A stretch of 64,000 nucleotides of DNA, from NCBI GenBank assembly GCA_033762295.1, contig JANRLW010000043.1:92715-156714 (forward strand). Reading direction: 5' to 3'. Shown piece after piece: positions 1-31,598 of this stretch. The notes under the pieces were generated by a model. The model did no database searches. It was not told the DNA's origin and was given only the letters and a program-made list of their open reading frames with translations. This DNA is from Capsulimonadales bacterium. Lineage in GTDB: Bacteria > Armatimonadota > Armatimonadia > Armatimonadales > Armatimonadaceae. The translations under genes were made by a program, and so were the position numbers. Each line of letters starts with the position of its first letter. The first letter of the stretch is position 1.

Positions 1-3000
1 GTCGAACTGGCGAACGGTCGGCCTGTTTTGCCCTGCGCCGTCGTCGTGATGACGGAACCGGGGGAGGAACCCCTGGCGGTGGAGGCCATGAAACGCGGCG
101 CGCACGATTATCTCGACCGGCTGCGCGCGACTCCGGAGATTCTTTCCCGCGTCATTGAAAATGCGATCCGTCGGTTCGAACTGGGCCGCGAAAACGACCG
201 GCAGCGGAGTATCCTGCGCGAGAACGAGGAACGGCTGAGAATCGCCCTGCAGACCGCCCAGATGGGCAGCTACGAGTGGGACCTCGCCACCAACGTAATC
301 CGCTGGCAGCCGGAATTGGAGCGTCTCTACGGGCTTCGTCCGGGCCATTTCGATGGCACCTACGAGCACTGGGTCTCGATGATCGAACCGGAGGATCTTC
401 CGACACTGGAACGGCTTCGGCCCGAACTCGTCTGGATGGGCGAGACCTCGGGCGATTTCCGAATCCATCGCCCCGATGGAACCGTGCGCTGGATCCATGC
501 CCGTGACAAAATGGTGCGCGACCGTCACGGCACTCCCGAAAGGATCGTCGGCGTTCACGTCGACATCACCGAACGGAAGCAGGCGGAAGAGGCCCAGCAG
601 CGTCAGTTCGAACGTCAAACGCTGTTGCTGGAGTGCTCACGATTGTTGCTGGCGAGCGGACGAGGGGACCGTGAGCGCACCGAGTTGGTGTTCGAACGGA
701 TTCGCGGACATCTGGACGCCGATATCTGTTTCCATTACGAACCCGACCCCGCCAACGGAGACCTTCGCCTGGTCGCCGGTATCGGCATCCCGCCCGAAAT
801 GGCGGCGGAAGCGGCGCGGTTGGGCCTGGGACAGGCGTTCTGCGGGACGGTCGCGGAAACCTCTGCGCCGCTCCGACGGAACGCCGCCGAGGTGGCGGTC
901 GATCCGCAAGGCGCGTTCGTTCGTCGGGCGGGGGGACGGTGTTACGCCTCCCATCCGTTGCTCTCCGGGACCGGCGGGCTGCTGGGAACTTTTTCCGTCG
1001 CCAGTTCGCGACGCGAATCGTTTTCCGACGAGGAGATCGGCTTCCTGCAGACCCTAGCACATCTGATGGCGCTCGCCGCCGAGCGGGAACGGACCGAGGC
1101 CGCACTTCACCTGAGCGATCAGCGATTCCGCCTCGCGTTCGAGCAAGCCAATATCGGAATCGCCTATGTCACCCCGGACGGGCGCTGGCTCCGGGTGAAT
1201 GATCGGCTGTGCGCCATGCTCGGATACGCCTGCGAGGAGTTGATGCGCCTGCCGGCGTCCGCCATGTGGATTGCCGGTGAGGAAGGCGACGACCGGGAAC
1301 TTCGGGAAAAGCTGCTGACCGGGGAGATCGGGTCGTTTGCCCGGGAAAAACGCTACCGGAAGAAAAATGGGGAAATCCTCTGGGTACATCGAACCGTCGC
1401 GCTCGCCCGCGATGCGCAGGGACGCCCGGACTACTTCATTCTGATTGTCGAGGATATCTCGGACCGAAAACGGGCCGAGGAGGAGCGGCAGCATATCGTC
1501 GAAAGCGCCGGATGCCTGCTCTGGTCGTGCGAGGTTCGCAACGACGGCGAGAAACTTCGCTGGGAGACGACCTATTTTGACGAAGAGGCCGCCCAGCGTC
1601 TGGTGCCGATTCGTCCGAAACCCGGCAAGAGATACATCTGGCACTGGCATGATGTCCGGTTCCCGGAGGATCGCGAACGAAACTATCGCCACGGGGAACG
1701 CTGTGTGCGGGCCGGTCAGGACTACCAGGATGAGTTCCGCATGCGGGCCGAGGATGGTTCGGTGCGCTGGCTGCGGGAGGATGTGCGGGTTCGGACGATC
1801 GAGGAAGGGCAACGCTGGAGCCTCGTCGGTGTCTGCACCGATATCACGAGCCTGAAAGCGGCGGAAGCCGAACGGACCTACGTACTCGAAAGCGCCCGCT
1901 GCCTTCTCTGGCACGCGACCGTCCACGATATCGGAACCGACGCGCTGGAGTGGGAAGTCTCCTCACCCTCGGCGGAAAGCGGTAACCGTTTCGTCATCCT
2001 CGAAGTCCCTCCGCACAAAACGTATATGGATATGTTCCACGCCGCCAGGTTGCCGGAGGACCGGGAACGGACGGATCGGGACGGCAACCGTCATCTGCGT
2101 GAGGATCGGGGGTATCAGCAGGAGTTCCGGGTGCGGGCCGCGTCCGGTGAGATACGCTGGGTCCATGAATCGGTCCGGGTGGATGTTCTCGAACCGGGGA
2201 AACGGTGGCGACTGGCCGGGGTCTGTGTCGATATCACCGAACAAAAACGCGCGGAGGAGTTAATCCGTAACGAAAAGGAGCTGCTGAGCCGGGTCGCTGA
2301 GACAGTGCCGGGCGTGGTCTGCGCGTACCGGCTCGATCCGGACGGACGCGTTTCGATGCCATATGCCGCGCCGGGTATCCGCGACCTCTACGGATTGACA
2401 CCGGAGGACGTGCGGGAGGATGCCTCCCGCCTCATGGAACTCTGGCACCCCGGGGACCGTGACCTGCTGATTTCCACCATCGACGAATCGCGACGGACGA
2501 TGGCTCCCTGGCAATGCGAGTTCCGTGCGCTTGTTCCGACGCGCGGGGAGATCTGGGTCGAAGGGCATTCGGTGCCGAAACGGGAGGACGACGGCAGTAC
2601 CATCTGGTATGGCATGCTGACCGAAATCACCGGGCGAAAGCGTGCTGAAGAGTTCGCGTACGGCCATCGTGAGGTGCTGGAACGGATCGCCGACACCGCT
2701 CCGCTGGCCGAAACGATCGACCTCCTGCTGCGACACACGGAGCGGTACTCTCCGGGGATGATCTGCGGCGTGCTGCTGCCCGACGCGGACGGTAAGCGTC
2801 TCCGCCATATCGCCGGTCCGAGCCTTCCGGAGCCGTATGTGCGGGCGATCGATGGTGTGGAGATCGGGCCGAATGCCGGGAGTTGCGGAACCGCCGCCTA
2901 CCGGCGAGATACGGTGTTCGTCGAGGATATCGCCACCGATCCGCTCTGGCAGGATTTTCGGCACCTGGCATTGCCCCATGGTCTCCGCGCCTGCTGGTCG

Positions 3001-5160
3001 ACTCCGGTTCTCGACCGCGACGGCACGGTGCTCGGGACATTCGCCGCCTATTTCCGAAACCCGGTTCTGCCGTCGCCGTCCCATCTGGTTCTGGCGCAGG
3101 ATGTCATTCGGACGCTGACCCTTTGCCTGCGGAGGCATCGGGCGGAACAGGCGTTACGGGAAAGCGAAAACCGCCTGCGCGACCTGATTGAGGGGCTTCC
3201 GCAGCTGGTCTGGACCTGTGAACCGCAGGGAACCTGTGACTACCTCAGTCCGCAATGGGTCGAATATACAGGTGTCCCGATGGTGGAGCAACTGGAATAC
3301 GGCTGGGGTAAGCAGATCCATCCGGAGGATTTACCCGGTCTCCTCGAGGATTGGAAAGCGGTTGTCGACAGCGGCGAACCCGGTCGGCTGTTGTTTCGCA
3401 TCCGTCGGTGGGACGGCGTGTACCGCTGGTTCGACACCCGTGCCATCCCCCTCCGGGACGAGAACGGCCGGGTGATCAAGTGGTTCGGCACCAATACCGA
3501 TATCGAGGATAGCGAGCGTACGAAACAGGCGTTGCGCGACGAGCAGGAGCGATTCACGCGCGTCGCCTCCTCCGTTCCCGGAGCGATCTATTCGTTCCGA
3601 CTCAGTCCCGACGGTTCGATCAGTTTGCCGTACGCCAGTCCGGCACTGCGCGAAATCGTCGGAGCGGACGCGGAGACGTTCCGGCACGACGCCTCGGGTA
3701 TCTACGAAATGATCGATCCCGCAGATATCGATCATTTCCGGTCCTCGATCCTGGAATCGGGACGGACCCTTACCGAGTGGAACTGTGAGTTCCGCCTCCG
3801 CCATCCCCGGAAGGGACTGCTCTGGATTGAGGGGCGATCGACGCCGGTGGCCGAACCGGACGGAAGCATCCTCTGGCATGGTTTTCTTTCGGATATCACC
3901 CGCCGAAAACAGGCCGAGGAATCGGTCATCCGCCTGAATGCCGAACTGGAGAAGCGGGTCCGTGAGCGAACGCGCGAACTCGTCCGGGCCAAGGAGGAGG
4001 CGGAGCGGGAACGCCTGGCCGCCGATGTCGCGCGGCGTGAGTCCGATAAAGCCAACGCCGCCAAGAGCGAGTTTCTTTCGCGCATGAGCCACGAACTGCG
4101 AACGCCGCTCAACAGTATTCTGGGATTCGCCCAGGTGATGGAGATGCAGTCCGCCGACCCCCGGCAGACGGCGCGCATCGGCCATATTCTCAAAGCCGGA
4201 AAGCACCTGCTCCAGCTGATCAACGAAGTTCTGGACATGGCGCGTGTCGAGGCCGGTCACCTGTCCCTGTCCCTGGAACCGATCAACCTGCGCCTGGCCG
4301 TGGAAACCGTGCTGGACCTGATCCGCCCGTTGAGCCAGCAGCAATCGCTATCGGTCGTCCACGATTTACCAGGGACCGACGATGTCTTCGTCCTCGCCGA
4401 TCAGCAGCGGCTCTCCCAGGTGTTGCTGAATCTGCTTTCCAATGCCGTAAAATACAACCGGGTCGGCGGCGAGGTGCGAGTCGGGATCGAGGATGCCGGA
4501 AGGGACCGGGTCCGTATCAACGTTTCGGATACCGGCAGGGGAATCGCCCCGGAGGATCTGAGGCTGCTGTTTTTACCGTTCGAGCGGGTCGGGAACCAGA
4601 TGGAGAACATCGAGGGGACCGGATTGGGACTCGCGCTGTCGAAACGTCTTGTGGAAGCGATGGGGGGAGCGATCGGTGTCGAAAGCGTTCCCGGGAAGGG
4701 CAGTACCTTCCGGTTCGAACTGGTGCGGGCGGCGGGACTCCCCGACCCCGCACTACCCGCCGCGGAGACGGGCTTGCCGTCGGCACCCGAACATAACCAT
4801 ACGATTCTCTATATCGAAGACAATCTGGCCAATCTCCAGTTCATCGAGGAGGTGCTCGCGGATCGTCCGAATATCCGCATCGTCCGGTCCATGCAGGGGA
4901 CCGTCGGTCTGGAACTGGCACGGCAGCGTCCGCCGTCGCTGATTCTGCTGGACCTGCATTTACCGGATCTTTCGGGTGAGGAGGTACTGCGCCGACTGCG
5001 ATCGGACCCGCGAACATGCGACGTGCCGGTAGTGGTGATCTCCGCTGCGGCGATCACCGACAACGGGCGTCGGCTCCGCGAACTGGGAGCCTCCAATTTT
5101 CTGATGAAGCCGGTCGATGTCCGGCAATTCCTCGAGACGATCGCCGATATTCTGCCGTAA
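1..5160 (+). CDS. Hybrid sensor histidine kinase (partial REC, multiple PAS/PAC, 2 GAF, HisKA, HATPase, C-terminal REC); 5' end probably outside window
   Basis: ORF 28..5160 is open back to position 1. H-box FLSRMSHELRTPLN, N-box QVLLNLLSNAVKY, G-boxes DTGRGI and GTGLGL. C-terminal ILYIED...LLDLHLP receiver. Many PAS-ending DITERK motifs. Confidence 0.93.
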   Translation, partial: VELANGRPVLPCAVVVMTEPGEEPLAVEAMKRGAHDYLDRLRATPEILSRVIENAIRRFELGRENDRQRSILRENEERLRIALQTAQMGSYEWDLATNVIRWQPELERLYGLRPGHFDGTYEHWVSMIEPEDLPTLERLRPELVWMGETSGDFRIHRPDGTVRWIHARDKMVRDRHGTPERIVGVHVDITERKQAEEAQQRQFERQTLLLECSRLLLASGRGDRERTELVFERIRGHLDADICFHYEPDPANGDLRLVAGIGIPPEMAAEAARLGLGQAFCGTVAETSAPLRRNAAEVAVDPQGAFVRRAGGRCYASHPLLSGTGGLLGTFSVASSRRESFSDEEIGFLQTLAHLMALAAERERTEAALHLSDQRFRLAFEQANIGIAYVTPDGRWLRVNDRLCAMLGYACEELMRLPASAMWIAGEEGDDRELREKLLTGEIGSFAREKRYRKKNGEILWVHRTVALARDAQGRPDYFILIVEDISDRKRAEEERQHIVESAGCLLWSCEVRNDGEKLRWETTYFDEEAAQRLVPIRPKPGKRYIWHWHDVRFPEDRERNYRHGERCVRAGQDYQDEFRMRAEDGSVRWLREDVRVRTIEEGQRWSLVGVCTDITSLKAAEAERTYVLESARCLLWHATVHDIGTDALEWEVSSPSAESGNRFVILEVPPHKTYMDMFHAARLPEDRERTDRDGNRHLREDRGYQQEFRVRAASGEIRWVHESVRVDVLEPGKRWRLAGVCVDITEQKRAEELIRNEKELLSRVAETVPGVVCAYRLDPDGRVSMPYAAPGIRDLYGLTPEDVREDASRLMELWHPGDRDLLISTIDESRRTMAPWQCEFRALVPTRGEIWVEGHSVPKREDDGSTIWYGMLTEITGRKRAEEFAYGHREVLERIADTAPLAETIDLLLRHTERYSPGMICGVLLPDADGKRLRHIAGPSLPEPYVRAIDGVEIGPNAGSCGTAAYRRDTVFVEDIATDPLWQDFRHLALPHGLRACWSTPVLDRDGTVLGTFAAYFRNPVLPSPSHLVLAQDVIRTLTLCLRRHRAEQALRESENRLRDLIEGLPQLVWTCEPQGTCDYLSPQWVEYTGVPMVEQLEYGWGKQIHPEDLPGLLEDWKAVVDSGEPGRLLFRIRRWDGVYRWFDTRAIPLRDENGRVIKWFGTNTDIEDSERTKQALRDEQERFTRVASSVPGAIYSFRLSPDGSISLPYASPALREIVGADAETFRHDASGIYEMIDPADIDHFRSSILESGRTLTEWNCEFRLRHPRKGLLWIEGRSTPVAEPDGSILWHGFLSDITRRKQAEESVIRLNAELEKRVRERTRELVRAKEEAERERLAADVARRESDKANAAKSEFLSRMSHELRTPLNSILGFAQVMEMQSADPRQTARIGHILKAGKHLLQLINEVLDMARVEAGHLSLSLEPINLRLAVETVLDLIRPLSQQQSLSVVHDLPGTDDVFVLADQQRLSQVLLNLLSNAVKYNRVGGEVRVGIEDAGRDRVRINVSDTGRGIAPEDLRLLFLPFERVGNQMENIEGTGLGLALSKRLVEAMGGAIGVESVPGKGSTFRFELVRAAGLPDPALPAAETGLPSAPEHNHTILYIEDNLANLQFIEEVLADRPNIRIVRSMQGTVGLELARQRPPSLILLDLHLPDLSGEEVLRRLRSDPRTCDVPVVVISAAAITDNGRRLRELGASNFLMKPVDVRQFLETIADILP

Positions 5161-20241: not shown

Positions 20242-21420
20242 CTACCAGTCGCCGATGCTGCCATCCGTGTAGAAGACCCGTTGTGGAATCTCCTGTCGGA
20301 AGGGGTATTTCTTCACCGCCTCCTCGTTGATCTCGATACCCAGACCGGGCTTCGTTCCGGGGCGAACGATCCGTCCTTCGTGTTCGACGGTGAACGTTTC
20401 GGAGCAGACCTCTTCGCGCCAGGGCACGTCGAGGTGAACGGATTCGCAGATGACGTAGGAGGGGGCGGAGAATCCGAACTCAAGCGAGGCGGCGGTGGAG
20501 ACGGGGCCTTGCGGGTTATGCGGCGCGAGGGCGACCCGGTAGGCTTCGCACAGGGCGGCGATGCGCCGGATTTCTGACAGGCCGCCGCAGTGGGTGATAT
20601 CCGCCTGAACGACGGAGCAGGCGCGTTTTTCGAGCAGGTCGCGGAAGTCCCAGAGTCCGACCATTCGTTCGCCGGTGGCGATCGGCGTCGTCACGGACCG
20701 CTGGATCAGGGCGATATCGTCGATGGTTTCGGGCCAGCAGGGTTCTTCGAACCAGTAGAGCCCATAGGGTTCCAGCGCTTTGGCGAACATCAGCCCCATG
20801 CGCGGCGACGGGCGGGCGTGGCAGTCCACCATGATATCGATGCTGTCGCCGACGGCTTCGCGCAGGGCGGCGACACACTTTTCGGCGTACCGGATCGGCA
20901 TCAGCCCTTCGAGCGGCATCGTCGGCGGGACGGCCATCGTTTTGAAGGCGGTGAACCCGTCTTCGACGGCTTTCCGGGCAAGTTCGGCGAAGCGAACGGC
21001 ATCGGCGGGAGCGGTTTCGTAGAAGTCCTCCATTTTGCCGCCTCCGAGGTGGGAGTACAGGCGGATATGGTCCCGAACGGGGCCGCCCCAGAGTTTATGG
21101 CAGGGGACGCCGAGGGACTTGCCGAGGATATCCCAGAGGGCGATATCGATTCCGGAGATGGCGGTTCCGCGGACGATCCCGTTGCCATGCCAGAAGTGCT
21201 GGCGGTACATCATCTGCCAGAGGTATTCGATCCGGGTCGGGTCCTCTCCGAGGAGCAGTTGGGAAAGGTCTTCGATCGCCCCCACCACGGCGCGGGTGTG
21301 CCATTCCAGCGTCGCCTCACCCCATCCCCAGAGTCCCGGTTGGTCGGTGACGACCTTGACGAAGATCCAGTTCCGCATCCGGGCGTTGCAGATGTGCGTC
21401 TCGATCGCCGTGATTTTCAT
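20242..21420 (-). CDS. dgoD: Galactonate dehydratase (mandelate racemase/enolase superfamily)
   Basis: [50 protein letters not shown]. Confidence 0.85.
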
Positions 21421-21631
21421 GCCCTTACCTTCGGTGCGTCCCGGCCATTTCCCTGCCGTTCACAGCGTCCGGCTTTTCCAGCGGTTTCCTGGCCGGTGGT
21501 CGAAAAAGAATCAGGAGGAAGTGGGGACGAACGTCTGTTGATAAAAGGTCTGCTTTACCGGCGATACGCTGGTCGTCATCTTCAGTCCGAACACCCGGTT
21601 TCCAGGCTTTTCGCGATAAAATTCCGATGAA

Positions 21632-21859
21632 ATGATTGATTACTACTCTCGTGTCCGTTTACAATCGGACAGGTTCCTCCACGAAGGACTGGCAATTGGT
21701 GCTCTCGGCTATGTTATCGAAGTGTATGACGATGGGTTCTGCGAGGTCGAGTTTTCGAACGAGCAGGGATTTACTTCCCCTCAAATAGTCGCTCATGAAA
21801 CGGAATTGGAGTTAGTTGAAGAATCACCATGTACGAAAGGTAATGCCGGGATGGGGTAG
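21632..21859 (+). CDS. DUF4926-like small protein (putative immunity)
   Basis: VRL...GLAIGALGYVIEVY...EVEFS...G pattern. Confidence 0.65.
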   Translation: MIDYYSRVRLQSDRFLHEGLAIGALGYVIEVYDDGFCEVEFSNEQGFTSPQIVAHETELELVEESPCTKGNAGMG

Positions 21860-21979
21860 ATGACCGGTGGTGATAGTGAAAGCGTTTTTGGAACTTATTG
21901 GCCACCAGGGGAAAGCTTTCTCGACACACGTGCGCACTCAATTATATGAGTAAATGATTCGGCAAACGCGAGAAAAACA

Positions 21980-22446
21980 TTGACCTTCGATCTTGAGATA
22001 GAACGCAATCCTTCCGGCCACGACGACCTCATTCTGCACTTTGCCGGACGGGCGTGGCCGTGTGATTCATATTATCTTGGACTCGCCCCTGACGTTTTAC
22101 CGGACCAACACGATCGATACAAGATCCGGCTGGTTTTATGTTCGCTGTTGCGACAGTGGGTGGAGACGGTGACAAACCTTTCGGAATCCGGTGGCGTGTT
22201 CTTCCGTACGATTTTTCGGACGAGTACACCGGATGGCTCCAATGCCGGCGCTTCGGTGACTTCGTCGTCTTATGTCGCGGATGGTCAACAATCGAAGGGT
22301 GGAGTATTAACCCCTCTTCTGTCGGGGAATATATATACCATGTTCCGAACTTTCAACCGGATGCCCCGAAACTGGAGGCCAATTTCAGGGAGGTCGTAAA
22401 TACTTGTATGGTATTGCAACGCCGATTCTGTGGCGGCCGTCGGTGA
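21980..22446 (+). pseudogene. Frameshifted immunity-like gene
   Basis: ORF 21980 (…LLRQWVETV…GGVF) continues in another frame as LPYDFSDEYTGWLQC; shift near 22200. Confidence 0.55.
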
Positions 22447-22545
22447 CCCTTTACCATCGGTGAAGTCCGAATCGCGATCTTTGTCGTCCGAAAGACAGGG
22501 AACGGTCCGAGGGGGCCTCCGTAACGTCGCCCTGCCAGAACGCCC

Positions 22546-22712
22546 GCCGTCTCGAGACGACGTCGGAGCCTCCGTTCTTCGTGTCGGGGCTGGGCTGGGT
22601 CCCGGCAGGACTTCTGTCGATCGGGAACGCAATCGTCACGCGGGCCGGTCCGAAGGCGACCGAGCAGACAAGCGCTGTCGCCAAAGTCGAGACCCAGGTC
22701 GGACGAATCCGT
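22546..22712 (+). repeat. HINT repeat copy 1 (internal fragment)
   Basis: Encodes RLETTSEPPFFVSGLGWVPAG...IVTRAGPKATEQTSAVAKVETQVGRIR; near-identical DNA to the other copies. Confidence 0.9.
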
Positions 22713-22896
22713 TTTCGCCGGTAGCCCGATTTTGCCCGACATGTCAAACGCCTGAATAGTTACCTATTAGGAATTTACCGTTCCCACTCCAGGGCTTGCA
22801 ATGCGGGGCGCGCGGCGCGTGGTTACTGGGGCGGGTGGAGAAGTCTACTACACGTACAACCACTACAATTGTTTTGTTCAGTTGTTCAGGATGTGA
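22713..22896 (+). pseudogene. Remnant of RNase Sa/barnase-type ribonuclease toxin with in-frame stops
   Basis: Manual translation: PILPDMSNA*IVTY*EFTVPTPGLAMRGARRVVTGAGGEVYYTYNHYNCF, matching the RNase Sa pattern EYTV.TPG...RG.RR...G...YYT.DHY. Confidence 0.8.
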
Positions 22897-22902
22897 AAAA
22901 GA

Positions 22903-23322
22903 ATGAGTTGGTTTTATGTTGCTGAGAGTGACGTTACGGATCCGGAATCGTCGTCTACACGGAAAACCGTCCGAATAGATGGTAATACCGTTTCGACCAC
23001 GGACGAACTGTTTGACTGCCTTAGCCAATACCTCGAATTTCCGAACTATTTCGGTCGGAACTGGTCTGCGCTAGAGGACTGCCTGGGTGACCTGCAATGG
23101 CTTGGTACTAACGTCATCACCGTCATTTGGTTTCAATGCCGAACGTACTTCCTAAAGAACCCGGAAGACTTTTTAACCTTTCTTGATGTCTTCGAAAATT
23201 CAGCCAGTTGGCACAAACAGGTCGGTGGCGACTTACGGTTGATACTATCAGATGATTATCTGTATCGTGTTTCCTTAGCTCTGAAAAACGCAACGCTTTC
23301 AAACGAGAACAACCATCAATGA
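22903..23322 (+). CDS. Barstar family ribonuclease inhibitor (immunity)
   Basis: IDG...LEFPNYFGRNWSALEDCLGDLQW. Confidence 0.9.
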   Translation: MSWFYVAESDVTDPESSSTRKTVRIDGNTVSTTDELFDCLSQYLEFPNYFGRNWSALEDCLGDLQWLGTNVITVIWFQCRTYFLKNPEDFLTFLDVFENSASWHKQVGGDLRLILSDDYLYRVSLALKNATLSNENNHQ

Positions 23323-23325
23323 ACT

Positions 23326-23973
23326 GTGACAGGCAGGTGCCGATTATGGCAGCATGCCGTCTTCCATAACGGGGATGGCAGCCGTCTCGAGACGACGTCG
23401 GAGCCTCCGTTCTTCGTGTCGGGGCTGGGCTGGGTTCCGGCAGGACGTCTGTCGATCGGAAACACGATCGTCACCCGCGCCGGTCCGAAGGCGACCGAGC
23501 AGACGAGCACCGTCGCCAAGGTCGAGGCCCAGGTCGGTCGCATCCGTGTCTACATTCTCAACGTTGCCGACCTCAATACCTTCTTTGTTCAGGACGCCCA
23601 CCAAAAGGGACTGCCCAAGTGGGTGCATAACGGGTGTAACCTCATCGAAATTGCAGAGGAAGTACATTCCGTTTTGCCTGTCGGTGCCCAGGATTACCGG
23701 ACCACGGCGGCGGTGCGAGCCTGGACCGGGAAGAGTTTCGAAACTGTTGTTGCTTCCAACCGGACGTATCTGTCGCGCCCTCAACAGGCCGTTGCCGAGG
23801 CATACGGAGCGATTTGTGCATCCGGAAAGGGGCATGCCGAGCTGACGGCGATTCGATATGCGCGAAGTCGCGGATGGAAGGTAATTTCCGTTGCTGCATC
23901 GCGACCGATTTGTGGTGAATGTTGGGTAACGATCAAGGATATTGGTGCGTTTGTGTTAACTGTTAGAAGGTAA
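23326..23973 (+). CDS. Orphan toxin module: HINT fragment plus nucleic-acid deaminase-like C-terminus (23632..23973)
   Basis: After WVHN: GHAE...SRPICGEC zinc-deaminase motifs. No convincing native start. Confidence 0.82.
   Translation: MTGRCRLWQHAVFHNGDGSRLETTSEPPFFVSGLGWVPAGRLSIGNTIVTRAGPKATEQTSTVAKVEAQVGRIRVYILNVADLNTFFVQDAHQKGLPKWVHNGCNLIEIAEEVHSVLPVGAQDYRTTAAVRAWTGKSFETVVASNRTYLSRPQQAVAEAYGAICASGKGHAELTAIRYARSRGWKVISVAASRPICGECWVTIKDIGAFVLTVRR
23371..23631 (+). repeat. HINT repeat copy 2 (C-terminal half, ends WVHN)
   Basis: GDGSRLETTSEPPFFV...FFVQDAHQKGLPKWVHN. Confidence 0.9.
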
Positions 23974-23986
23974 AGGTTAGAAATCT

Positions 23987-24295
23987 ATGCATAAATACCG
24001 TGTCCCCGTTAATTGTTACGTTTACATCGAGGCCGAGGACGATACTGAAGCATTGTTAAAAGCACAGAAATGGGCATTATCGGTCTACGCGGAGGAGAAC
24101 AGTCAGGAATCCCCTTGTGAACGTCCCCCTCTGGAAGGTATCTCGATCAAGGTGGATGACAAGCACGTTATGATATTCACCTCGTTTATGGATCGGGAAC
24201 TGCAAAAAGCGAAGGAATACCAGGAAACGTACTTGCTACCGGCTCTGGTGAAAGCGCGAACGGCTCGGCGGAGAAAAACCAGCGAGACGCCGTGA
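23987..24295 (+). CDS. Putative immunity protein for the deaminase toxin
   Basis: 102-aa ORF starting 13 bp after the toxin stop; positional inference. Confidence 0.6.
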   Translation: MHKYRVPVNCYVYIEAEDDTEALLKAQKWALSVYAEENSQESPCERPPLEGISIKVDDKHVMIFTSFMDRELQKAKEYQETYLLPALVKARTARRRKTSETP

Positions 24296-24325
24296 ACGGG
24301 GCAGGAACCCGAAACGTCTCTGCCA

Positions 24326-24910
24326 ATGGCGTCGGCGCCGTTCGCTGGCAACCGGGTTCCGGCGGGCCGGTTGGCGATCGGGAACGCGATTGTCACGCGG
24401 GCCGGTCCGAAGGCGGCCGAGCAGACGAGCGCTGTTGCCAAAGTCGAGCCTCTGGTCGGTCGCATCCGGGTCTATAACCTCAACGTCGCCGACAACCACA
24501 CCTTCTTCGTTCAGGACGCCCAAGGTAAGGGACAACCCAAGTGGGTGCATAATGAGTGTGACCTCGGCCTGTTGACAGGGAAATCGGCAAAAGTGACGCG
24601 AAAAGGCTTGGGAGTTATTGAGGAACATTTAGCACAGTTAGATCACGCGACGTATAATGACGCGATGATTGGACGCCTTCGTTCTGCGATGGCTAACGGA
24701 CAAAAAATATCCGGTGCGGATTTGAGTTTTTATACTCACGAACTGAGCGAAGCGACAATGATGCAGGGCGGTGCATACACTGACGCAGCATATAATGCCG
24801 CTCATGCGGCGCCACTCGCCAAGTATAAAGTCTCCCCATTTAGTGTTTATCATCCTGACGTTATCAGGGCGATGCCGCAAGAATTCGGGCCAGCGTGGCG
24901 TCGCGCATGA
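24326..24910 (+). CDS. Orphan toxin module: HINT fragment plus unassigned helical toxin tip (24554..24910) with HExxE...H motif
   Basis: After WVHN: ...FYTHELSEATMM...YNAAHAA...KYKVSPFSVYHPDVI. Confidence 0.75.
   Translation: MASAPFAGNRVPAGRLAIGNAIVTRAGPKAAEQTSAVAKVEPLVGRIRVYNLNVADNHTFFVQDAQGKGQPKWVHNECDLGLLTGKSAKVTRKGLGVIEEHLAQLDHATYNDAMIGRLRSAMANGQKISGADLSFYTHELSEATMMQGGAYTDAAYNAAHAAPLAKYKVSPFSVYHPDVIRAMPQEFGPAWRRA
24354..24553 (+). repeat. HINT repeat copy 3 (ends WVHN)
   Basis: VPAGRLAIGNAIVTRAGPK...VYNLNVADNHTFFV...KWVHN. Confidence 0.9.
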
Positions 24911-25458
24911 GGTATTCCGTGATTGAAGCCCCTTTTCATAAACCAGGCACCATACGCATTTGGTTCGATGAGGCTAAACCTTATGATTTCGCTCCTGGGC
25001 GGGTTGTGAAGTTTGAGATTGCAACCCAGCCTTCAGCCATCCGAAGAGAGCGAAGGGTAACAGTGGAACTGGTATTGCGTAGGGCTGGTCTTTTCCCATA
25101 TGGGTTGTTAGGCGCAGCGTTCATCCCAAATGTATCGAACGTATTGCAAATCGAAGTCAATTGCGACAGTCAGACCGATGTAATGGTATTGAATAGTTTA
25201 GCCTTGCAACCGGATACCGTTCTGATAGGTCTTCCCTATGAATATGCTCAAGCAGTTTTAAACAGTGTGGCCCACTCTGACATCAGCGAACAATTGGGAA
25301 GTGGTCTTATCCGCTTTGATTGTGCTGCTCACGGTGAGGTCGGCTCATCTTCATCTGCTTTTGTGCGTTTGTCTCTCATCGTCACGCAACTACTTACGTT
25401 AGATGTAACAGAGCGTAGTTACAATGACATTGCTTCTATTCTTACTCAGATTGAATAG
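24907..25458 (+). CDS. Putative immunity protein, EF-G domain IV (S5 domain 2 fold)-like
   Basis: ATGA overlap with the toxin stop; GLPYEYAQAV and CAAHGEVGSSSSAF resemble EF-G domain IV segments. Confidence 0.65.
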   Translation: MRYSVIEAPFHKPGTIRIWFDEAKPYDFAPGRVVKFEIATQPSAIRRERRVTVELVLRRAGLFPYGLLGAAFIPNVSNVLQIEVNCDSQTDVMVLNSLALQPDTVLIGLPYEYAQAVLNSVAHSDISEQLGSGLIRFDCAAHGEVGSSSSAFVRLSLIVTQLLTLDVTERSYNDIASILTQIE

Positions 25459-25749
25459 CAAGCCGTTAAGGGCAAGTGGTCGGGAGGCACTCTATTGCTT
25501 GCCTCGTGTGTAACCGCCCGCGTACCTTATGAGCATCCTTCCAGCACACTCAGAGGCAGGACGTTTTGCTTTCACAAGGGGGATAGTTTCCCTTCCTTCC
25601 GCAGCCGGTCAATTTCCGGACCAGCGGGCAAGTGGTCGAGTGTCCTTCCAGTCCGTCGCCGCGCCCGCAGGGACAGACGAACTCCGAGAGCGGCTTCGGC
25701 GTGCGGCCAAGGTTGCTGATCTTCGTCCCAGTCGTCCCCAACCGGCTTT

Positions 25750-26076
25750 GTGGCAGCCAAACGCGTCCCGGACACGTCGGTTCGGGAAGTGATCTCGACG
25801 ACGGTGTTGACGTTCGCGGACGGCAGCCGGATCGAGACCACGTCGGAGCATCCGTTCTTCGTATCGGGACTGGGCTGGGTCCCGGCAGGTCGGTTAGCAA
25901 TCGGGAACGCGATCGTGACCCGCGCCGGTCCGAAGGCGACCGAGCAGACGAGCGCCGTCGCCAAAGTCGAGACCCTGGTCGGTCGAATCCGGGTTTACAA
26001 CCTCAATGTCGCCGACAACCACACCTTCTTCGTTCAGGATGCCCACGGTAACGGACTGCCCAAGTGGGTGCATAAC
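25750..26076 (+). repeat. HINT repeat copy 4 (longest; retains TTSEHP and WVHN)
   Basis: KRVPDTSVREVISTTVLTFADGSRIETTSEHPFFV...KWVHN. Confidence 0.92.
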
Positions 26077-26412
26077 GGGTGCATCTGGAAAATCAGTCCT
26101 GTGTTCCCTGATTGGGCAGTTAAAGGAGCCCATTTTACGGCCAATGGAATCGAACTCGCTTTGCGACCGGGACGGGGTGGTGCTATGGTTCTAAAACAAG
26201 TGTTTTCCAAAACGCCCGCTCATCTTGTTCGCGAAGCCATTCAGGACGCGCGTCCGCTCTTACAGGACAAAGCATTTCTCCTCAAAATGCTGGATCGAGT
26301 TAAAGAAGCCAAATCATATGTCCTGGAATATCCTAAAGAAGGAGGGATGGGGCGGTCCGCCGAACTCCATTTTCTTGAAGTTGCCCTGAAACGAGCACTA
26401 AACGGACTTTGA
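25750..26412 (+). CDS. Orphan toxin module: HINT fragment plus unassigned toxin tip (26077..26412)
   Basis: After WVHN: GCIWKISPVFPDWAVKGAHF...GRSAELHFLEVALK. Confidence 0.75.
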   Translation: MAAKRVPDTSVREVISTTVLTFADGSRIETTSEHPFFVSGLGWVPAGRLAIGNAIVTRAGPKATEQTSAVAKVETLVGRIRVYNLNVADNHTFFVQDAHGNGLPKWVHNGCIWKISPVFPDWAVKGAHFTANGIELALRPGRGGAMVLKQVFSKTPAHLVREAIQDARPLLQDKAFLLKMLDRVKEAKSYVLEYPKEGGMGRSAELHFLEVALKRALNGL

Positions 26413-26416
26413 GGGG

Positions 26417-26863
26417 ATGATGCAAATTTCTTTACTGGAATTTTTGCGCTACGGACGGACGGCTGGTCTGCATGCGAACCTCTCCAAAGACGATGTCGAA
26501 GCCATTCTCGGAAGCCCGAACGGTACCGGGGGGGAGACCCGGCGGCGAAAGAATCCTTCCATATATAAATACGAAAGCCTGGAAATAATGTTCGCCGAAC
26601 CTGAACGTCAGAATGCCCACCGACTAACCATCAACCCGTATCCGGATGACTTTATGTTCCCTCCTTCCTGGACGATTGACGATTGGTCATTACATCCGAC
26701 GGATTCCGTTGAAGACGTACAACGCTTTTTGGAGGACAACAACCTCTCCTATGAATTTCGTTACCCGGAACTCTCCAACAAGGTATTGGGCGTCGTCGAA
26801 AGCAGTGTCGAAATCTATTTTGACGACGGCCTGTTATGCAGCATCACCAGCCTACTGAAATAG
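26417..26863 (+). CDS. Putative immunity protein
   Basis: GAGGGG RBS, starts 4 bp after the toxin stop; LSKDDVEAILGSP...IYKY pattern (SmpA/BLIP-like, tentative). Confidence 0.65.
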   Translation: MMQISLLEFLRYGRTAGLHANLSKDDVEAILGSPNGTGGETRRRKNPSIYKYESLEIMFAEPERQNAHRLTINPYPDDFMFPPSWTIDDWSLHPTDSVEDVQRFLEDNNLSYEFRYPELSNKVLGVVESSVEIYFDDGLLCSITSLLK

Positions 26864-27074
26864 GGTAACAAGGTTGCACAATGCCTTATCCAGGTTTTTA
26901 CGCCAACAGACAAAGAATATCAATGGGACGGTCTTTGATATGTTGCCTAGGAAAGGCAACGCCGGATCGATTGTTCGAACGAACTTCACTCGATCCGAAC
27001 GACTGAGTGCGTTAGATCAGTTTTATCAGAATTACCAGGGAGGGGCGTATTACAGCAATTCCTCAATGAAGTAA
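26864..27074 (+). pseudogene. Probable toxin C-terminal remnant
   Basis: Short startless frame LHNALSRFL...ERLSALDQFY directly upstream of an immunity-like gene. Confidence 0.4.
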
Positions 27075-27116
27075 TGGTAGCCATCCGAAACGGTTGGGCG
27101 CGCTAGGGTAAGGTTT

Positions 27117-27716
27117 ATGTCAGAGCAATGGTACTGGTTAGTTCCGAAGGATCAGAGACACAATAACTTCGTGTTTTGGCATGAAGGTCCTCCGCGGACG
27201 GTACGGAATTCCTATTTGCATCTTCGGTGTCCGCAATGTGGAAAAATCGACGAAACCAACGCGGTTTTTCTGCCAACAGAGCCAGATGTCAAAATCCGAT
27301 CTCGTAGCGACATCGTTGGCACGGACGATGGCATGCTCTGCTTCAGTCAGCGGGCAAAATCAGTAACAGAGCAAAATGGCATTGGCGGCTTGCGCTTTCT
27401 TCCCGTGGGTTTGAACCACCAGTACTTTATGGTCTGGCCGACAAACTGGGTGCCCGTGGACCTGTCATCCGCAGGCTTCCAGTATGAGGAAGGGGACCGT
27501 TTCTGTTCCGGTTGTGGCAGACCTCGCCGTGGCGCATATGTTGGCCCGTTACGGCAATCCTTTCCTGTTCCGGACGATGCCGCCTTGATTGTCGCGCCGT
27601 CTGCCTGGCGAGAGGGGTATTATACTCGTAACCTCTGGCTACTGGTTAGCGAAAATACAAAGGCCGTCTTCAAGAGGGAAAAGCTCTCGGGAATAGAGTT
27701 TTCGGTTCCGCTGTAA
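27117..27716 (+). CDS. Double-CXXCG motif immunity-like protein (SitI6/Imm11-like)
   Basis: CPQCG and CSGCG motifs; FSQRAK...GLRF and LVSENTKAVFKREKLSGIEF half-repeats. Confidence 0.65.
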   Translation: MSEQWYWLVPKDQRHNNFVFWHEGPPRTVRNSYLHLRCPQCGKIDETNAVFLPTEPDVKIRSRSDIVGTDDGMLCFSQRAKSVTEQNGIGGLRFLPVGLNHQYFMVWPTNWVPVDLSSAGFQYEEGDRFCSGCGRPRRGAYVGPLRQSFPVPDDAALIVAPSAWREGYYTRNLWLLVSENTKAVFKREKLSGIEFSVPL

Positions 27717-27746
27717 CTCCGCCCATAACAACAAACGAAAAACCGG

Positions 27747-28208
27747 ATGAGGAAATACCCGATCCAGCTTAGCGCTGGCGATTTTGAAACCGGAATTTTA
27801 CCAAACGGTAACCAACTCCTGATCGGAAAGCAGATACCCGGGCTCATCGCAGTTCTCTTTTCACCGGACGGCGACTTTATTCAATTGTTGACGAAACCAG
27901 GTTCCCGTCCTTTATCGGTGCCTTACCGAACCTATGAACTCGAGAGCGATCTGATGCATTGGCAAAAGGAGTTACAGGTCATACCCCATGCGATCGGTGT
28001 TCGAAAGTTCATGATCCGGGAGCATACGATCGGGATCCAGGACATTCCAGATCACTTAACGGTGACCGCGATCGAATCTCTGACGGACGAGGACGACCGT
28101 ATCGCAATGAAAAACGAACTGGCATGCTGGAAAAAGAACCGCTGTTTTGTCCTCTGGTGGGCCAAGGATTACTACATGAACCGACGTGGCGGAATCGATT
28201 CGACGTAA
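27747..28208 (+). CDS. Hypothetical protein, orphan immunity-like
   Basis: Intact 153-aa ORF inside the array ending FVLWWAKDYYMN...IDST. Confidence 0.6.
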   Translation: MRKYPIQLSAGDFETGILPNGNQLLIGKQIPGLIAVLFSPDGDFIQLLTKPGSRPLSVPYRTYELESDLMHWQKELQVIPHAIGVRKFMIREHTIGIQDIPDHLTVTAIESLTDEDDRIAMKNELACWKKNRCFVLWWAKDYYMNRRGGIDST

Positions 28209-28290
28209 GGGGAAAATCAGGGCATCACCGGCCCCTTCTCGATTCCGTGCGATCTCCGGGCAATGACAGCAACGCTCGCATCGGAATTTC

Positions 28291-28461
28291 GTCCTTTCGA
28301 AGAGCGCCGCGACCGGCACTGTGGAAGCGAAGGAGGTTCCGGACACGTCGGTTCGGGAGGTGATCTCGACGACGGTGTTGACGTTCGGGGATGGGAGTCG
28401 TCTCGAGACCACGTCGGAGCCTCCGTTCTTCGTGTCGGGGCTGGGCCGGATACCGGCAGGG
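28291..28461 (+). repeat. HINT repeat copy 5 (N-proximal/middle fragment)
   Basis: VLSKSAATGTVEAKEVPDTSVREVISTTVLTFGDGSRLETTSEPPFFVSGLG. Confidence 0.88.
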
Positions 28462-28492
28462 CAACCGGCGCTGACAACAATTGTAAACTGCC

Positions 28493-29083
28493 ATGAAAAG
28501 TACTATCGCACTGTTTCAGGAAGATGAATTACCTCCCAAACATCCGCGGGTTACCGATAAACGTCCGACAAAGGTCGAAACAATCCTGAAGAAAGTCGAC
28601 TGGCATACCTACGAACAAAACGTTCTCACACTGGTCAAGGGGGCAATCACTTCCTTTTCGCAGTCGCCTGAGGTCACTCCGGTTTGTCAGTTATCCCTGT
28701 TGACGGACGCACAGACAGGGCATAGCATTCTCAGCTTTGAGACCCGCAAAAATCGGGCAGATGTGGAGGAAAAGGATAACCACTTTGTGCAAATGGAAAA
28801 AATCGATCGGGTGCCACATACCATTAATGATAATCCGCGCGAGTTTCGCTTCTGGGCGTGGGCGTCCTACTATCATCGGGAACTGGACGGTCTGAATCTA
28901 TTGGATTTCGCTGTTCCTTCCCACAGGCAAGCCGCAGACCGCAGGATCGCCGCTTCGCTGCGGAATGTTATTAATACTTGTTGGGATGGAAATGTTCTCA
29001 TGCCGTTGCCTTTGGACTTGCCCTTTCATATCGGCATCAATGGCGTAAAGGATTGGTTCTGCGTCGTAAAAGTTCTAAAATGA
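28493..29083 (+). CDS. Hypothetical protein, orphan immunity-like (DUF4303-like, tentative)
   Basis: Intact 196-aa AT-richer ORF right after HINT copy 5 with no intervening toxin. Confidence 0.55.
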   Translation: MKSTIALFQEDELPPKHPRVTDKRPTKVETILKKVDWHTYEQNVLTLVKGAITSFSQSPEVTPVCQLSLLTDAQTGHSILSFETRKNRADVEEKDNHFVQMEKIDRVPHTINDNPREFRFWAWASYYHRELDGLNLLDFAVPSHRQAADRRIAASLRNVINTCWDGNVLMPLPLDLPFHIGINGVKDWFCVVKVLK

Positions 29084-29089
29084 CCTTTC

Positions 29090-29516
29090 GAGTAACACAG
29101 CTAAACTGACAGAGCCACAGGTCGCTGTGAAAGCGGACGCAGACCTCGTCGGCTTCGAGGCAGTCGCCCGGAGCGTCGGAGGCGGGGACAACGCTCGCGG
29201 CCAATCCATGGGCTAGTTGCCGTGCGCTTTTTTCCGGATTTTGCGAACGGTCATTCGGCTGACACCGAAGGTACGGGAGATGCCGTACTGAGAGACACGC
29301 TCTGCCAGCGCGTTGAGGATATGTTGCTCCTTTTCGGGGCTGAGTTGCCTGGGGTTCGGGTTCGGCGTAAAGGTCTTCCGGCAGGCTTTACAACGGAGTC
29401 GTGCGGTTCCGCCTCGGTTGGTGCCGTGCTTGACGACGGTGTCGGGTTTGTTGCAGACGGGACAGAGAATCGCGACCATGCGACCATCATACCATCAACG
29501 CATTAAATTCTATAGC
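29090..29516 (-). mobile_element. insA: Truncated IS1-family element (InsA 29213..29479 plus short InsB fragment)
   Basis: CPVC...KHG...RLRCKACRKTF zinc finger and HTH; A6G slippery run at ~29227-29233; the -1 frame reads ...LEADE...LWL before breaking off. Ends approximate. Confidence 0.8.
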
Positions 29517-29541
29517 CACAAAAGCCAACGGGAGTTGTCCT

Positions 29542-29856
29542 TTGAATTCAAGCGAAATGCGTAATTCCGTCACCGATCTTTTGAATCTGGATACCTTGCC
29601 TTCTGGCAACGATTCTACGGAAGATTACGTGGAGAAGTTTTCTCGGTACCTCAGCATGATCGAACCACCTATCACGGACGCTGAATCAATCGAACTCGCG
29701 AGATTGTTCGGACCCGATGACTGCTTCGGCGTTGCTTGGTCACTACTCCATATTCTCGAGACCGCACCTGGATGGCCCGTTGAAGAAGCGTTGTCCGTCG
29801 TTCCCGATTCTTGGCGTTCGATAATCGATGCCCGAGTAGCCAATCGAAGAAAGTAA
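29542..29856 (+). CDS. Small helical immunity-like protein (Imm30-like, tentative)
   Basis: GGGAG RBS; DDCFGVAWSLLHILETAPGWP motif. Confidence 0.6.
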   Translation: MNSSEMRNSVTDLLNLDTLPSGNDSTEDYVEKFSRYLSMIEPPITDAESIELARLFGPDDCFGVAWSLLHILETAPGWPVEEALSVVPDSWRSIIDARVANRRK

Positions 29857-29930
29857 ATCCTCGCGAGTATAAACCGACAAGTCCGTGCCGTCGCGGAGAA
29901 ATGCTCCGATCCATGCCTACGCACGAGGGG

Positions 29931-30128
29931 AACGAGGTTCCGGACACGTCGGTTCAGGAAGTGATTTCGACGACGGTGTTGACGTTCGGAGACGGCAGCC
30001 GGATCGAGACGACGTCGGAGCCTCCGTTCTTCGTGTCGGGGCTGGACTGGGTCCCGGCAGGTCGGTTAGCAATTGGGAACGCAATCGTCACGCGGGCCGG
30101 TCCGAAGGCGACCGAGCAAACGAGCACG
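29931..30128 (+). repeat. HINT repeat copy 6 (terminal, no toxin follows)
   Basis: EVPDTSVQEVISTTVLTFGDGSRIETTSEPPFFV...KATEQTST. Confidence 0.9.
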
Positions 30129-30145: not shown

Positions 30146-30178
30146 ACCCTCCGGTATCCTGGGGAACCGGAGGGTTTT
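30146..30178. terminator. Hairpin between the array and the convergent malic enzyme gene
   Basis: accctccggt / accggagggt followed by ttt. Confidence 0.5.
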
Positions 30179-30193
30179 CCTTGGCGACGGCGA

Positions 30194-31486
<1,293 letters not shown>

Positions 31487-31598
31487 CGTTTTCCCTTTCT
31501 TCTCGGTGAAACAGGGCACTTCCGTCCTTTATTGTCTCCACCTCGAAACGGAAGAGAATCCGCGTTATGGGGGATTATTGGGGAAAACCGGAGCGGAA

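Follow-up and report, generated by a model that had tools for sequence, protein, structure and literature searches.

The DNA analysed here (the window) is a stretch of 64,000 nucleotides (nt) from contig C43 (156.7 kb) of a Capsulimonadales bacterium assembly that we call G000 (5.16 Mb, 132 contigs, 94.5% complete). It corresponds to G000:C43:92715-156714, and window coordinates are positions within those 64,000 nt. Within it, an island of putative toxin and immunity genes lies between an MR_MLE dehydratase gene (20242-21420, - strand) and a malic enzyme gene (30194-31519, - strand). DNA comparison and a custom profile identify six homologous + strand segments in the island, each encoding part of a HINT domain. 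As the original prediction had described, three of these (copies 2, 3 and 4) have WVHN as their last residues and continue in frame with unrelated C-terminal domains, here called tips, and a small open reading frame (ORF) follows each tip directly, 0-14 nt downstream. The HINT segments, tips and partner genes are as follows.

22540..22712, + strand: HINT copy 1, a middle fragment without a tip, with block-B His changed to Pro (DNA comparison)
23370..23973, + strand: HINT copy 2 (HINT 23370-23631) with tip 1; block-B His and block-F Asn/His are lost (Pfam PT-HINT, alignment)
23632-23973, + strand: tip 1, a predicted deaminase of the Zn-dependent type (HAE and PxCxxC motifs; homology)
23987..24295, + strand: predicted immunity ORF for tip 1, 102 amino acids (aa), 13 nt after tip 1, without an assigned family (position)
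24354..24910, + strand: HINT copy 3, a C-terminal half (HINT 24354-24553), with tip 2 (Pfam PT-HINT)
24554-24910, + strand: tip 2, a predicted all-helical domain with conserved HExxE and AH (alignment, model)
24907..25458, + strand: predicted immunity ORF for tip 2, with a predicted fold resembling EF-G domain IV (Atlas model, pairing)
25741..26412, + strand: HINT copy 4, the longest (HINT 25741-26076), with tip 3; blocks B, F and G are intact and the N-terminal Cys block is missing
26077-26412, + strand: tip 3, full length relative to P0185 (homology)
26417..26863, + strand: predicted immunity ORF for tip 3, 148 aa (position)
26859..27074, + strand: headless toxin remnant with neither HINT nor N-terminal half (homology)
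27117..27716, + strand: Imm11-like zinc-ribbon ORF, partner of the headless remnant (weak PF07791 match, E 0.02)
28312..28460, + strand: HINT copy 5, an N-proximal fragment without a tip, His to Pro (DNA comparison)
29937..30125, + strand: HINT copy 6, cut mid-domain at the right boundary, His to Pro (DNA comparison)

The segments had been described as six near-identical repeats; the number is right, but their pairwise identity is 82.5-93.5% (14 of the 15 pairs overlap) and the longest exact run common to any copies is 55 nt. Copies 2, 3 and 4 match PT-HINT (PF07591) with 38.1, 31.2 and 51.9 bits (cut-off 27.7), copy 6 scores under the cut-off, and copies 1 and 5 are detected by DNA comparison and the custom profile only. 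All six lack the HINT N-terminus, the most complete beginning at profile position 24 of 137, and the catalytic set is incomplete in each: the block A Cys is absent from all six, the block B His is retained only in copy 4 and the block F His in copies 3 and 4, with the terminal His-Asn present in copies 2, 3 and 4. Among the five copies that cover the block-B position, four (copies 1, 2, 5 and 6) have Pro in place of His, and copy 2 lacks both the Asn and the His of block F. The block-B His is kept in 21/21 outside HINTs of the custom-profile set (13 by pattern and 8 from tree rows) and the block-F His likewise in 21/21; one further tree row, P0026, has Leu at the block-B position. The roles of the HINT/BIL blocks are described in the available text of a review (PMC7765530), according to which the block-B His is required for the first cleavage step. 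Three of the six copies have no tip, and one tip, the 26859-27074 remnant, has no HINT. The closest named relatives of the HINT and tips are Armatimonadota records; for the HINT we found no close relative, the nearest outside protein being 55-57% identical and the best outside loci 49% identical among genome contigs and 58% identical, over 31 residues, among metagenome contigs. A HINT tree of 40 rows places the three from C43 in a separate, supported clade with a long branch, and its deeper forks are open. The HINT segments (GC 0.63-0.67) also stand apart in composition from the rest of the island (0.51; 0.53 for the whole island), and the flanks are at 0.63.

The HINT segments underwent purifying selection in their past history. 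In all 14 overlapping pairs the ratio of nonsynonymous to synonymous change (dN/dS) is 0.03-0.36 and the proportion of synonymous differences (pS) 0.20-0.42; the differences are thus mostly synonymous, which indicates that the segments diverged while part of working genes. They have also exchanged DNA. In one of five quartets tested, eight informative sites back one grouping and the next three another, a sorting that would be expected in 2/165 orderings, and identity tracts exceed the codon-aware shuffled ones for four of the six groupings (p 0.003, 0.013, 0.03 and 0.04, with p 0.11 and 0.82 for the other two), the groupings having been picked after seeing the data. A 34-nt tract common to copies 1, 2, 5 and 6 bears the block-B His to Pro change. 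The copies are therefore mosaics that have recombined, and the earlier proposal that HINT DNA is the recombination handle agrees with this and with its being the shared segment of the cassettes.

We found no RHS-type N-terminus between the flanking genes, as had been stated, and extended the search for a parent gene to the whole assembly. When copy 4 is searched by blastn and tblastn against G000, the high-identity matches are the six C43 copies only; the original prediction had named the lack of a full-length gene with this HINT, together with a lack of expression, as its refutation, and the first half of this is what the searches give. Pfam reports eight PT-HINT places in G000, and the custom six-frame profile, besides all six C43 copies, picks up three on C4, one on C64, one on C102 and a short remnant on C59. 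By blastn, tblastn, Pfam and the custom profile in six frames there is no full-length gene with a C43-type HINT in the assembly. C4 was rejected as the parent, its HINT having ~42% protein identity to copy 4 and only 33-nt DNA matches, and C64/C59 and C102 were rejected for having other HINT types. The array is therefore parentless in the assembly; a parent may lie in a gap, but nothing found here supports this. The C4 locus nonetheless offers a point of comparison. Its parent gene is 90.5% and 81.6% alike to its own two orphans, and this range (81.6-90.5%) matches that among the C43 copies, so that C43 looks like such a tail without a head.

The C4 toxin itself (L001:2942-14221; G000:C4:25113-36392) is intact, 3759 aa long and the sole intact RHS-HINT toxin of the genome, with ice-binding-like adhesive and Ig/Fn3-type domains, DUF6531, RHS repeats, PT-HINT and a tip, which we presume from its motif to be GIY-YIG-like. 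It is followed by insertion sequences and then by its own orphan cassettes up to the contig end.

The three tips and the remnant have relatives at the ends of other proteins. Tip 1 carries HAE and PxCxxC, which we take to be Zn-dependent deaminase motifs; the Pfam deaminase match has an E-value of only 0.15, and the tip is 31% identical (E 6e-9) to the C-terminal tip of the RHS-HINT protein P0022. Tip 3 shares 54% identity with the tip of P0185, a protein in which the HINT ahead of the tip is complete and of another lineage, and homologues of the tip 3 partner are present in 9/250 other genomes of the phylum. Over 62 aa the headless remnant is 56% identical to the last part of a HINT toxin in G001:C298, and the Imm11-like ORF is 45% identical to the gene after that toxin. 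The prediction of orphan toxin/immunity cassettes with an immunity bank is upheld as to the cassettes and the mostly open immunity-type ORFs, and is to be amended by this fourth, headless remnant. Searches of NCBIfam and PHROGs return no name for any tip or unassigned ORF.

Tip 2 belongs to a family of 547 cluster representatives at E<=0.001, in which many homologues end long proteins (1737-3745 aa) and the HExxE and AH are invariant in the alignment. The predicted structure is all-helical (pLDDT 95.9); a fold search gave no clear PDB match (best Foldseek E 1.5), which does not show that the fold is new, and a VIA fold search likewise gave no clear match (best Z 5.1, root-mean-square deviation 3.5 over 96 residues). 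The copy in the island is damaged, having Pro at a helix position at which 0/135 matched homologues have it, and lacking a terminal Trp motif present in 136/149 homologues. Its partner follows a tip 2 homologue in both of the other loci examined (G070 and a Methylosinus plasmid). In the Atlas the partner's model (pTM 0.86) aligns at TM 0.51-0.55 with entries that contain EF-G domain IV, and one neighbouring cluster is 18% PF03764, below the bar for naming a family; none of six aligned members of the partner family matches PF03764, and there is no PDB sequence match. A cluster of formaldehyde-activating enzymes also scores 0.90 against the model, and the EF-G likeness may therefore be a mere shared fold. 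Immunity proteins resembling EF-G domain IV were found neither in the literature searched nor in the main text of PMC3482391. It seems to us quite unlikely that tip 2 represents a widespread, undescribed toxin family whose target would be EF-G and whose partner would be a stand-alone EF-G domain IV decoy. If the decoy reading were true, it would provide a bacterial parallel to toxins hitting eEF2 domain IV; the pair lends itself to testing for a new toxin family and perhaps for immunity by target mimicry.

The remaining features of the island and its two flanking genes are as follows.

20242..21420, - strand: left flank, MR_MLE dehydratase gene of the enolase superfamily, pointing away from the array (Pfam MR_MLE_N/C)
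21632..21859, + strand: DUF4926 ORF, first gene of the island, a predicted orphan immunity gene with its toxin missing (PF16277, 33.5 bits, cut-off 29.1)
21980..22446, + strand: frameshifted small gene with the break near 22200, immunity-type by position (homology)
22903..23322, + strand: barstar-family immunity ORF with no barnase-like toxin (PF01337, E 4e-22)
25622..25744, - strand: what remains of a small CxC...H...CP gene, also present twice in the C64 island
27747..28208, + strand: 153-aa ORF, open and of immunity type to judge from its position (in L055 a homologue, E 2e-14, lies close to a HINT match)
28493..29083, + strand: open 196-aa ORF of no family (family searches)
29213..29479, - strand: IS1 InsA-like fragment (PF03811, E 1.6e-6; 82% DNA match on C2)
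29542..29856, + strand: 104-aa ORF, open and of immunity type to judge from its position (16 plasmid records have homologues, listed as hypothetical proteins)
30146-30175: hairpin between copy 6 and maeB (read off the sequence)
30194..31519, - strand: right flank, maeB-type malic enzyme gene, cut at the linker to the C-terminal domain (MaeB model alignment)

There are ten immunity-type ORFs in the island, together about 3.8 kb, all on the + strand, nine of them open and several full length relative to their homologues. Two have Pfam names (DUF4926, which we assume to have an immunity role, and barstar), and three more are backed by homologues beside toxins or HINT. The frameshifted gene has an intact 167-aa homologue in G103 that spans both of its frames (E 1e-17). 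Among the elements on the opposite strand, the CxC...H...CP family is present in 7/32 family genomes and one viral contig, and the three copies in G000 (those on C64 at 51482-51700 and 52876-53043) all lie in toxin islands on the strand opposite to the cassettes. Use of this gene as a cassette-linked mobility marker was rejected, with HINT or RHS nearby in 0/13 outside loci.

At the left end of the island an immunity-type gene comes first, with no toxin ahead of it. The left-flank gene has orthologues of 73-83% identity in five relatives, and island genes are absent from the MR_MLE neighbourhood in 4/4 relatives whose loci were fetched. At the right end copy 6 breaks off mid-domain ~70 nt from the malic enzyme stop, and the match of maeB to the 764-position MaeB model is confined to positions 9-421. 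With 444 aa, the open frame of maeB is shorter than those of 29/29 other matches among 301 genomes of the phylum (604-1167 aa, 28 of them at least 756 aa), and the C-terminal MaeB half of relatives is not found anywhere in G000. As copy 6 and maeB are both cut at this boundary, the junction is as a deletion would leave it. The malic domain of the truncated maeB is open, and a hairpin follows its stop. Beyond that stop, an alternative frame shows a weak likeness to the MaeB linker. The flanks had been called the housekeeping genes dgoD and malic enzyme; the malic enzyme type is confirmed, although the gene is cut short, and the dgoD assignment is unconfirmed beyond the MR_MLE family. In the proposed comparison of this interval across relatives, dgoD-like and maeB orthologues were in no case on one contig among 31 family genomes.

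Set beside the observed cassette layout, mosaic exchange, damage to HINT and tip 2, cut ends and mostly open immunity-type ORFs, the interpretation that we hold, with only moderate confidence, is that an ordinary polymorphic-toxin locus lost its head by deletion and left the array as its tail, that the toxin side is decaying, and that the array persists mainly as an immunity bank. Each cassette would once have been the 3' end of a secreted parent gene, in whose product HINT would cleave after His-Asn and free the tip. Recombination at the HINT DNA would have stacked cassettes behind the parent, the 5' part of which would have been lost later, and the silent copies would have kept exchanging DNA, spreading the His to Pro change. 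The co-oriented immunity genes, if transcribed, would guard against the toxins of neighbours. Several observations weigh against this account. The cassette of copy 4 and tip 3 is undamaged in its retained parts, the only one that is; five of the ten ORFs are given an immunity role by position alone; and open frames are no proof of selection, the island being undated. Upstream of the first island gene no promoter stands out clearly, with 8 promoter-like sites where 5.0 +/- 1.9 are expected, and promoter and terminator scans are at chance level. Lastly, the assembly is in 132 contigs and 94.5% complete, and an RHS gene interrupted by the end of contig C65 is a candidate parent, with relatives that can carry HINT, one of them together with a tip 1 homologue.

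The C65 gene also figures in a different view, close to the original prediction, in which the array is a working library whose tips are taken up by gene conversion into an unlinked parent with a C43 HINT hidden in an assembly gap, for example at the 3' end of C65. The RHS frame on C65 (L021:5572-9999; G000:C65:24102-28529) is 1476 aa long and open at the contig end just past the RHS core, and two relatives of it, G021:C776 (34.5% over 1164 aa) and P0022 (30% over 1411 aa), extend further, to PT-HINT and a toxin. Recombination among the HINT copies, the intact cassette of copy 4 and tip 3, and the occurrence of tip 2 DNA in the C64 island, by which pieces move between distant sites, all fit such a library. 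However, the C65 relatives came from HINT searches and show merely that the family can carry HINT, and their HINTs are not grouped with those of C43 in the tree (the deep forks being open). A match to the end of the C65 RHS core is present on C87 (90% over 130 nt), where it is the segment shared by an apparent C65 orphan, and C87 has no HINT. Moreover, a repeat-rich parent should have linked orphans, and the assembly holds no further C43-type copy; the His to Pro and block-F changes would also reach the parent unless crossovers lay beyond them. With no cognate parent in the assembly and catalytic HINT positions altered, we regard a working library as somewhat unlikely, though it would, if a distant parent were found, mean tip swapping across the chromosome. 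A separate observation is that G000:C87:1-3700 is a low-GC toxin/immunity stretch and maybe a downstream array of C65.

A pure relic, in which the whole island including its immunity genes is silent and decaying and the open frames reflect limited time, would account for the frameshifted gene, the IS1 fragment, the many internal deletions and the lack of an excess of promoter sites; it seems to us unlikely, since damage is mainly in the HINT segments and tips and 9/10 immunity-type ORFs are open, several at full length. Two other explanations we hold to be very improbable. Short HINT-tip proteins could be expressed from the cassettes themselves, as proposed for Neisseria mafB-CT starting within the BIL; GTG or ATG opens frames 2, 3 and 4, and mafB-CT cassettes with start codons are described in the available text of PMC4287609, but at least 23 profile positions are missing here compared with 7 residues in the Neisseria cassettes, and there is neither a clear ribosome-binding site before the starts nor an export signal. 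Equally, the repeats could be mis-joined and a parent collapsed out of the contig, to which the draft state of the assembly and the abrupt join of copy 6 to the truncated maeB would lend themselves. Yet the copies share at most 55 exact bases, which makes repeat collapse unlikely, their differences are mostly synonymous, the contig is 156.7 kb long, and both island ends are junctions of unique sequence rather than of repeats.

Standalone toxin-immunity cassettes, HINT processing, leftover immunity strings and polyimmunity loci are described in the available text of Zhang et al. 2012 (PMC3482391), and orphan modules are defined in that of Jamet and Nassif 2015 (PMC4436062). As in the modules presented there, the C43 cassettes have the toxin-then-immunity order, a shared 5' segment and leftover immunity strings. 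They also lack N-terminal trafficking domains; toxin and immunity genes are adjacent in three cassettes and one remnant; tip 2 and the headless remnant have counterparts paired in like manner in other genomes; and C43 tips elsewhere terminate long or HINT-bearing proteins (P0022 for tip 1, P0185 for tip 3). Unlike orphan modules, there is no full-length toxin gene upstream of the array, and none with a C43 HINT in the 132-contig assembly. The C43 island similarly departs from the C4 locus, whose copies differ comparably, in having no parent.

A comparable layout is that of the Neisseria class 1 maf islands, in which, in the available part of Jamet et al. 2015 (PMC4287609), a BIL segment heads the mafB-CT cassettes and is marked as potentially involved in variation; an A-type BIL/PT-HINT segment likewise heads each C43 cassette. 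The maf cassettes as presented there differ in following a full-length mafB and in keeping a near-whole BIL with only 7 residues missing, the HINT pieces of C43 being shorter, more damaged and parentless. For the rhs orphan of Salmonella LT2, an in vivo swap with the adjacent main gene is shown in the available text of Koskiniemi et al. 2014 (PMC3967940). That orphan, as described there, and the C43 cassettes have in common a silent tip without export signals, an immunity gene, and usability only through recombination with a main gene, with the differences that no main gene is found for C43 and that its shared segment is HINT. Heterogeneous polyimmunity loci, as covered in the available text of Zhang et al. 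2012, resemble the island in their many unrelated, co-oriented and closely spaced immunity-type genes; the definition given there, of loci never interrupted by toxin cassettes, does not extend to C43, in which three HINT-tip cassettes intervene. The literature searched, which covers few subscription papers, contains neither parentless HINT arrays nor Armatimonadota toxin loci. The array extends the known HINT-headed orphan polymorphic-toxin cassettes to a little-studied phylum and would catch a late stage, with the parent gone, decaying handles recombining mutually and antidote genes still open, plausibly showing how toxin loci can turn into polyimmunity loci.

Parentless cassettes are also found elsewhere in G000 and in its relatives. 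PT-HINT matches occur in 12/31 other family genomes, and 15 HINT loci were fetched and their upstream genes judged by eye. Two clearly have no upstream RHS gene on the contig: G001:C234, with three HINT copies, the first near-complete with an internal stop, and G014:C240, with one copy. The others comprise five with RHS in frame with HINT, three with other N-termini and five too near a contig end. The 92%-complete genome that carries the G001:C234 array contains no cognate parent for it. In G000 the C64 island (L002:7400-12000; G000:C64:51400-56000) is also parentless, with another HINT type and an SMI1/KNR4 gene, and shares with C43 79 nt of tip 2 (92%) and ~170 nt upstream of copy 4. Cassettes with no parent thus recur and are not unique to C43.

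Further observations were made on these and other loci. In the C64 island the 79 nt of tip 2 are joined to a different tip, as a chimeric remnant. Cassettes with an RHS-core end or a HINT end, and with no full-length parent on the contig, are also present at L024:1338-4031 (C22), L023 (C46:13457-16579), L022:1-621 (C130) and G000:C59:28700-30928. The HINT toxin on C102 (L003:12185-13429; G000:C102:22184-23428) is 414 aa long, with a short hydrophobic N-terminus replacing RHS and a partner downstream, and is possibly of an RHS-free delivery type. In G011:C257, too, a similar N-terminus stands ahead of HINT, and the C64 island contains a piece of one. Finally, at the left edge of the window an open frame of >1700 codons (1-5157, + strand) enters from outside.

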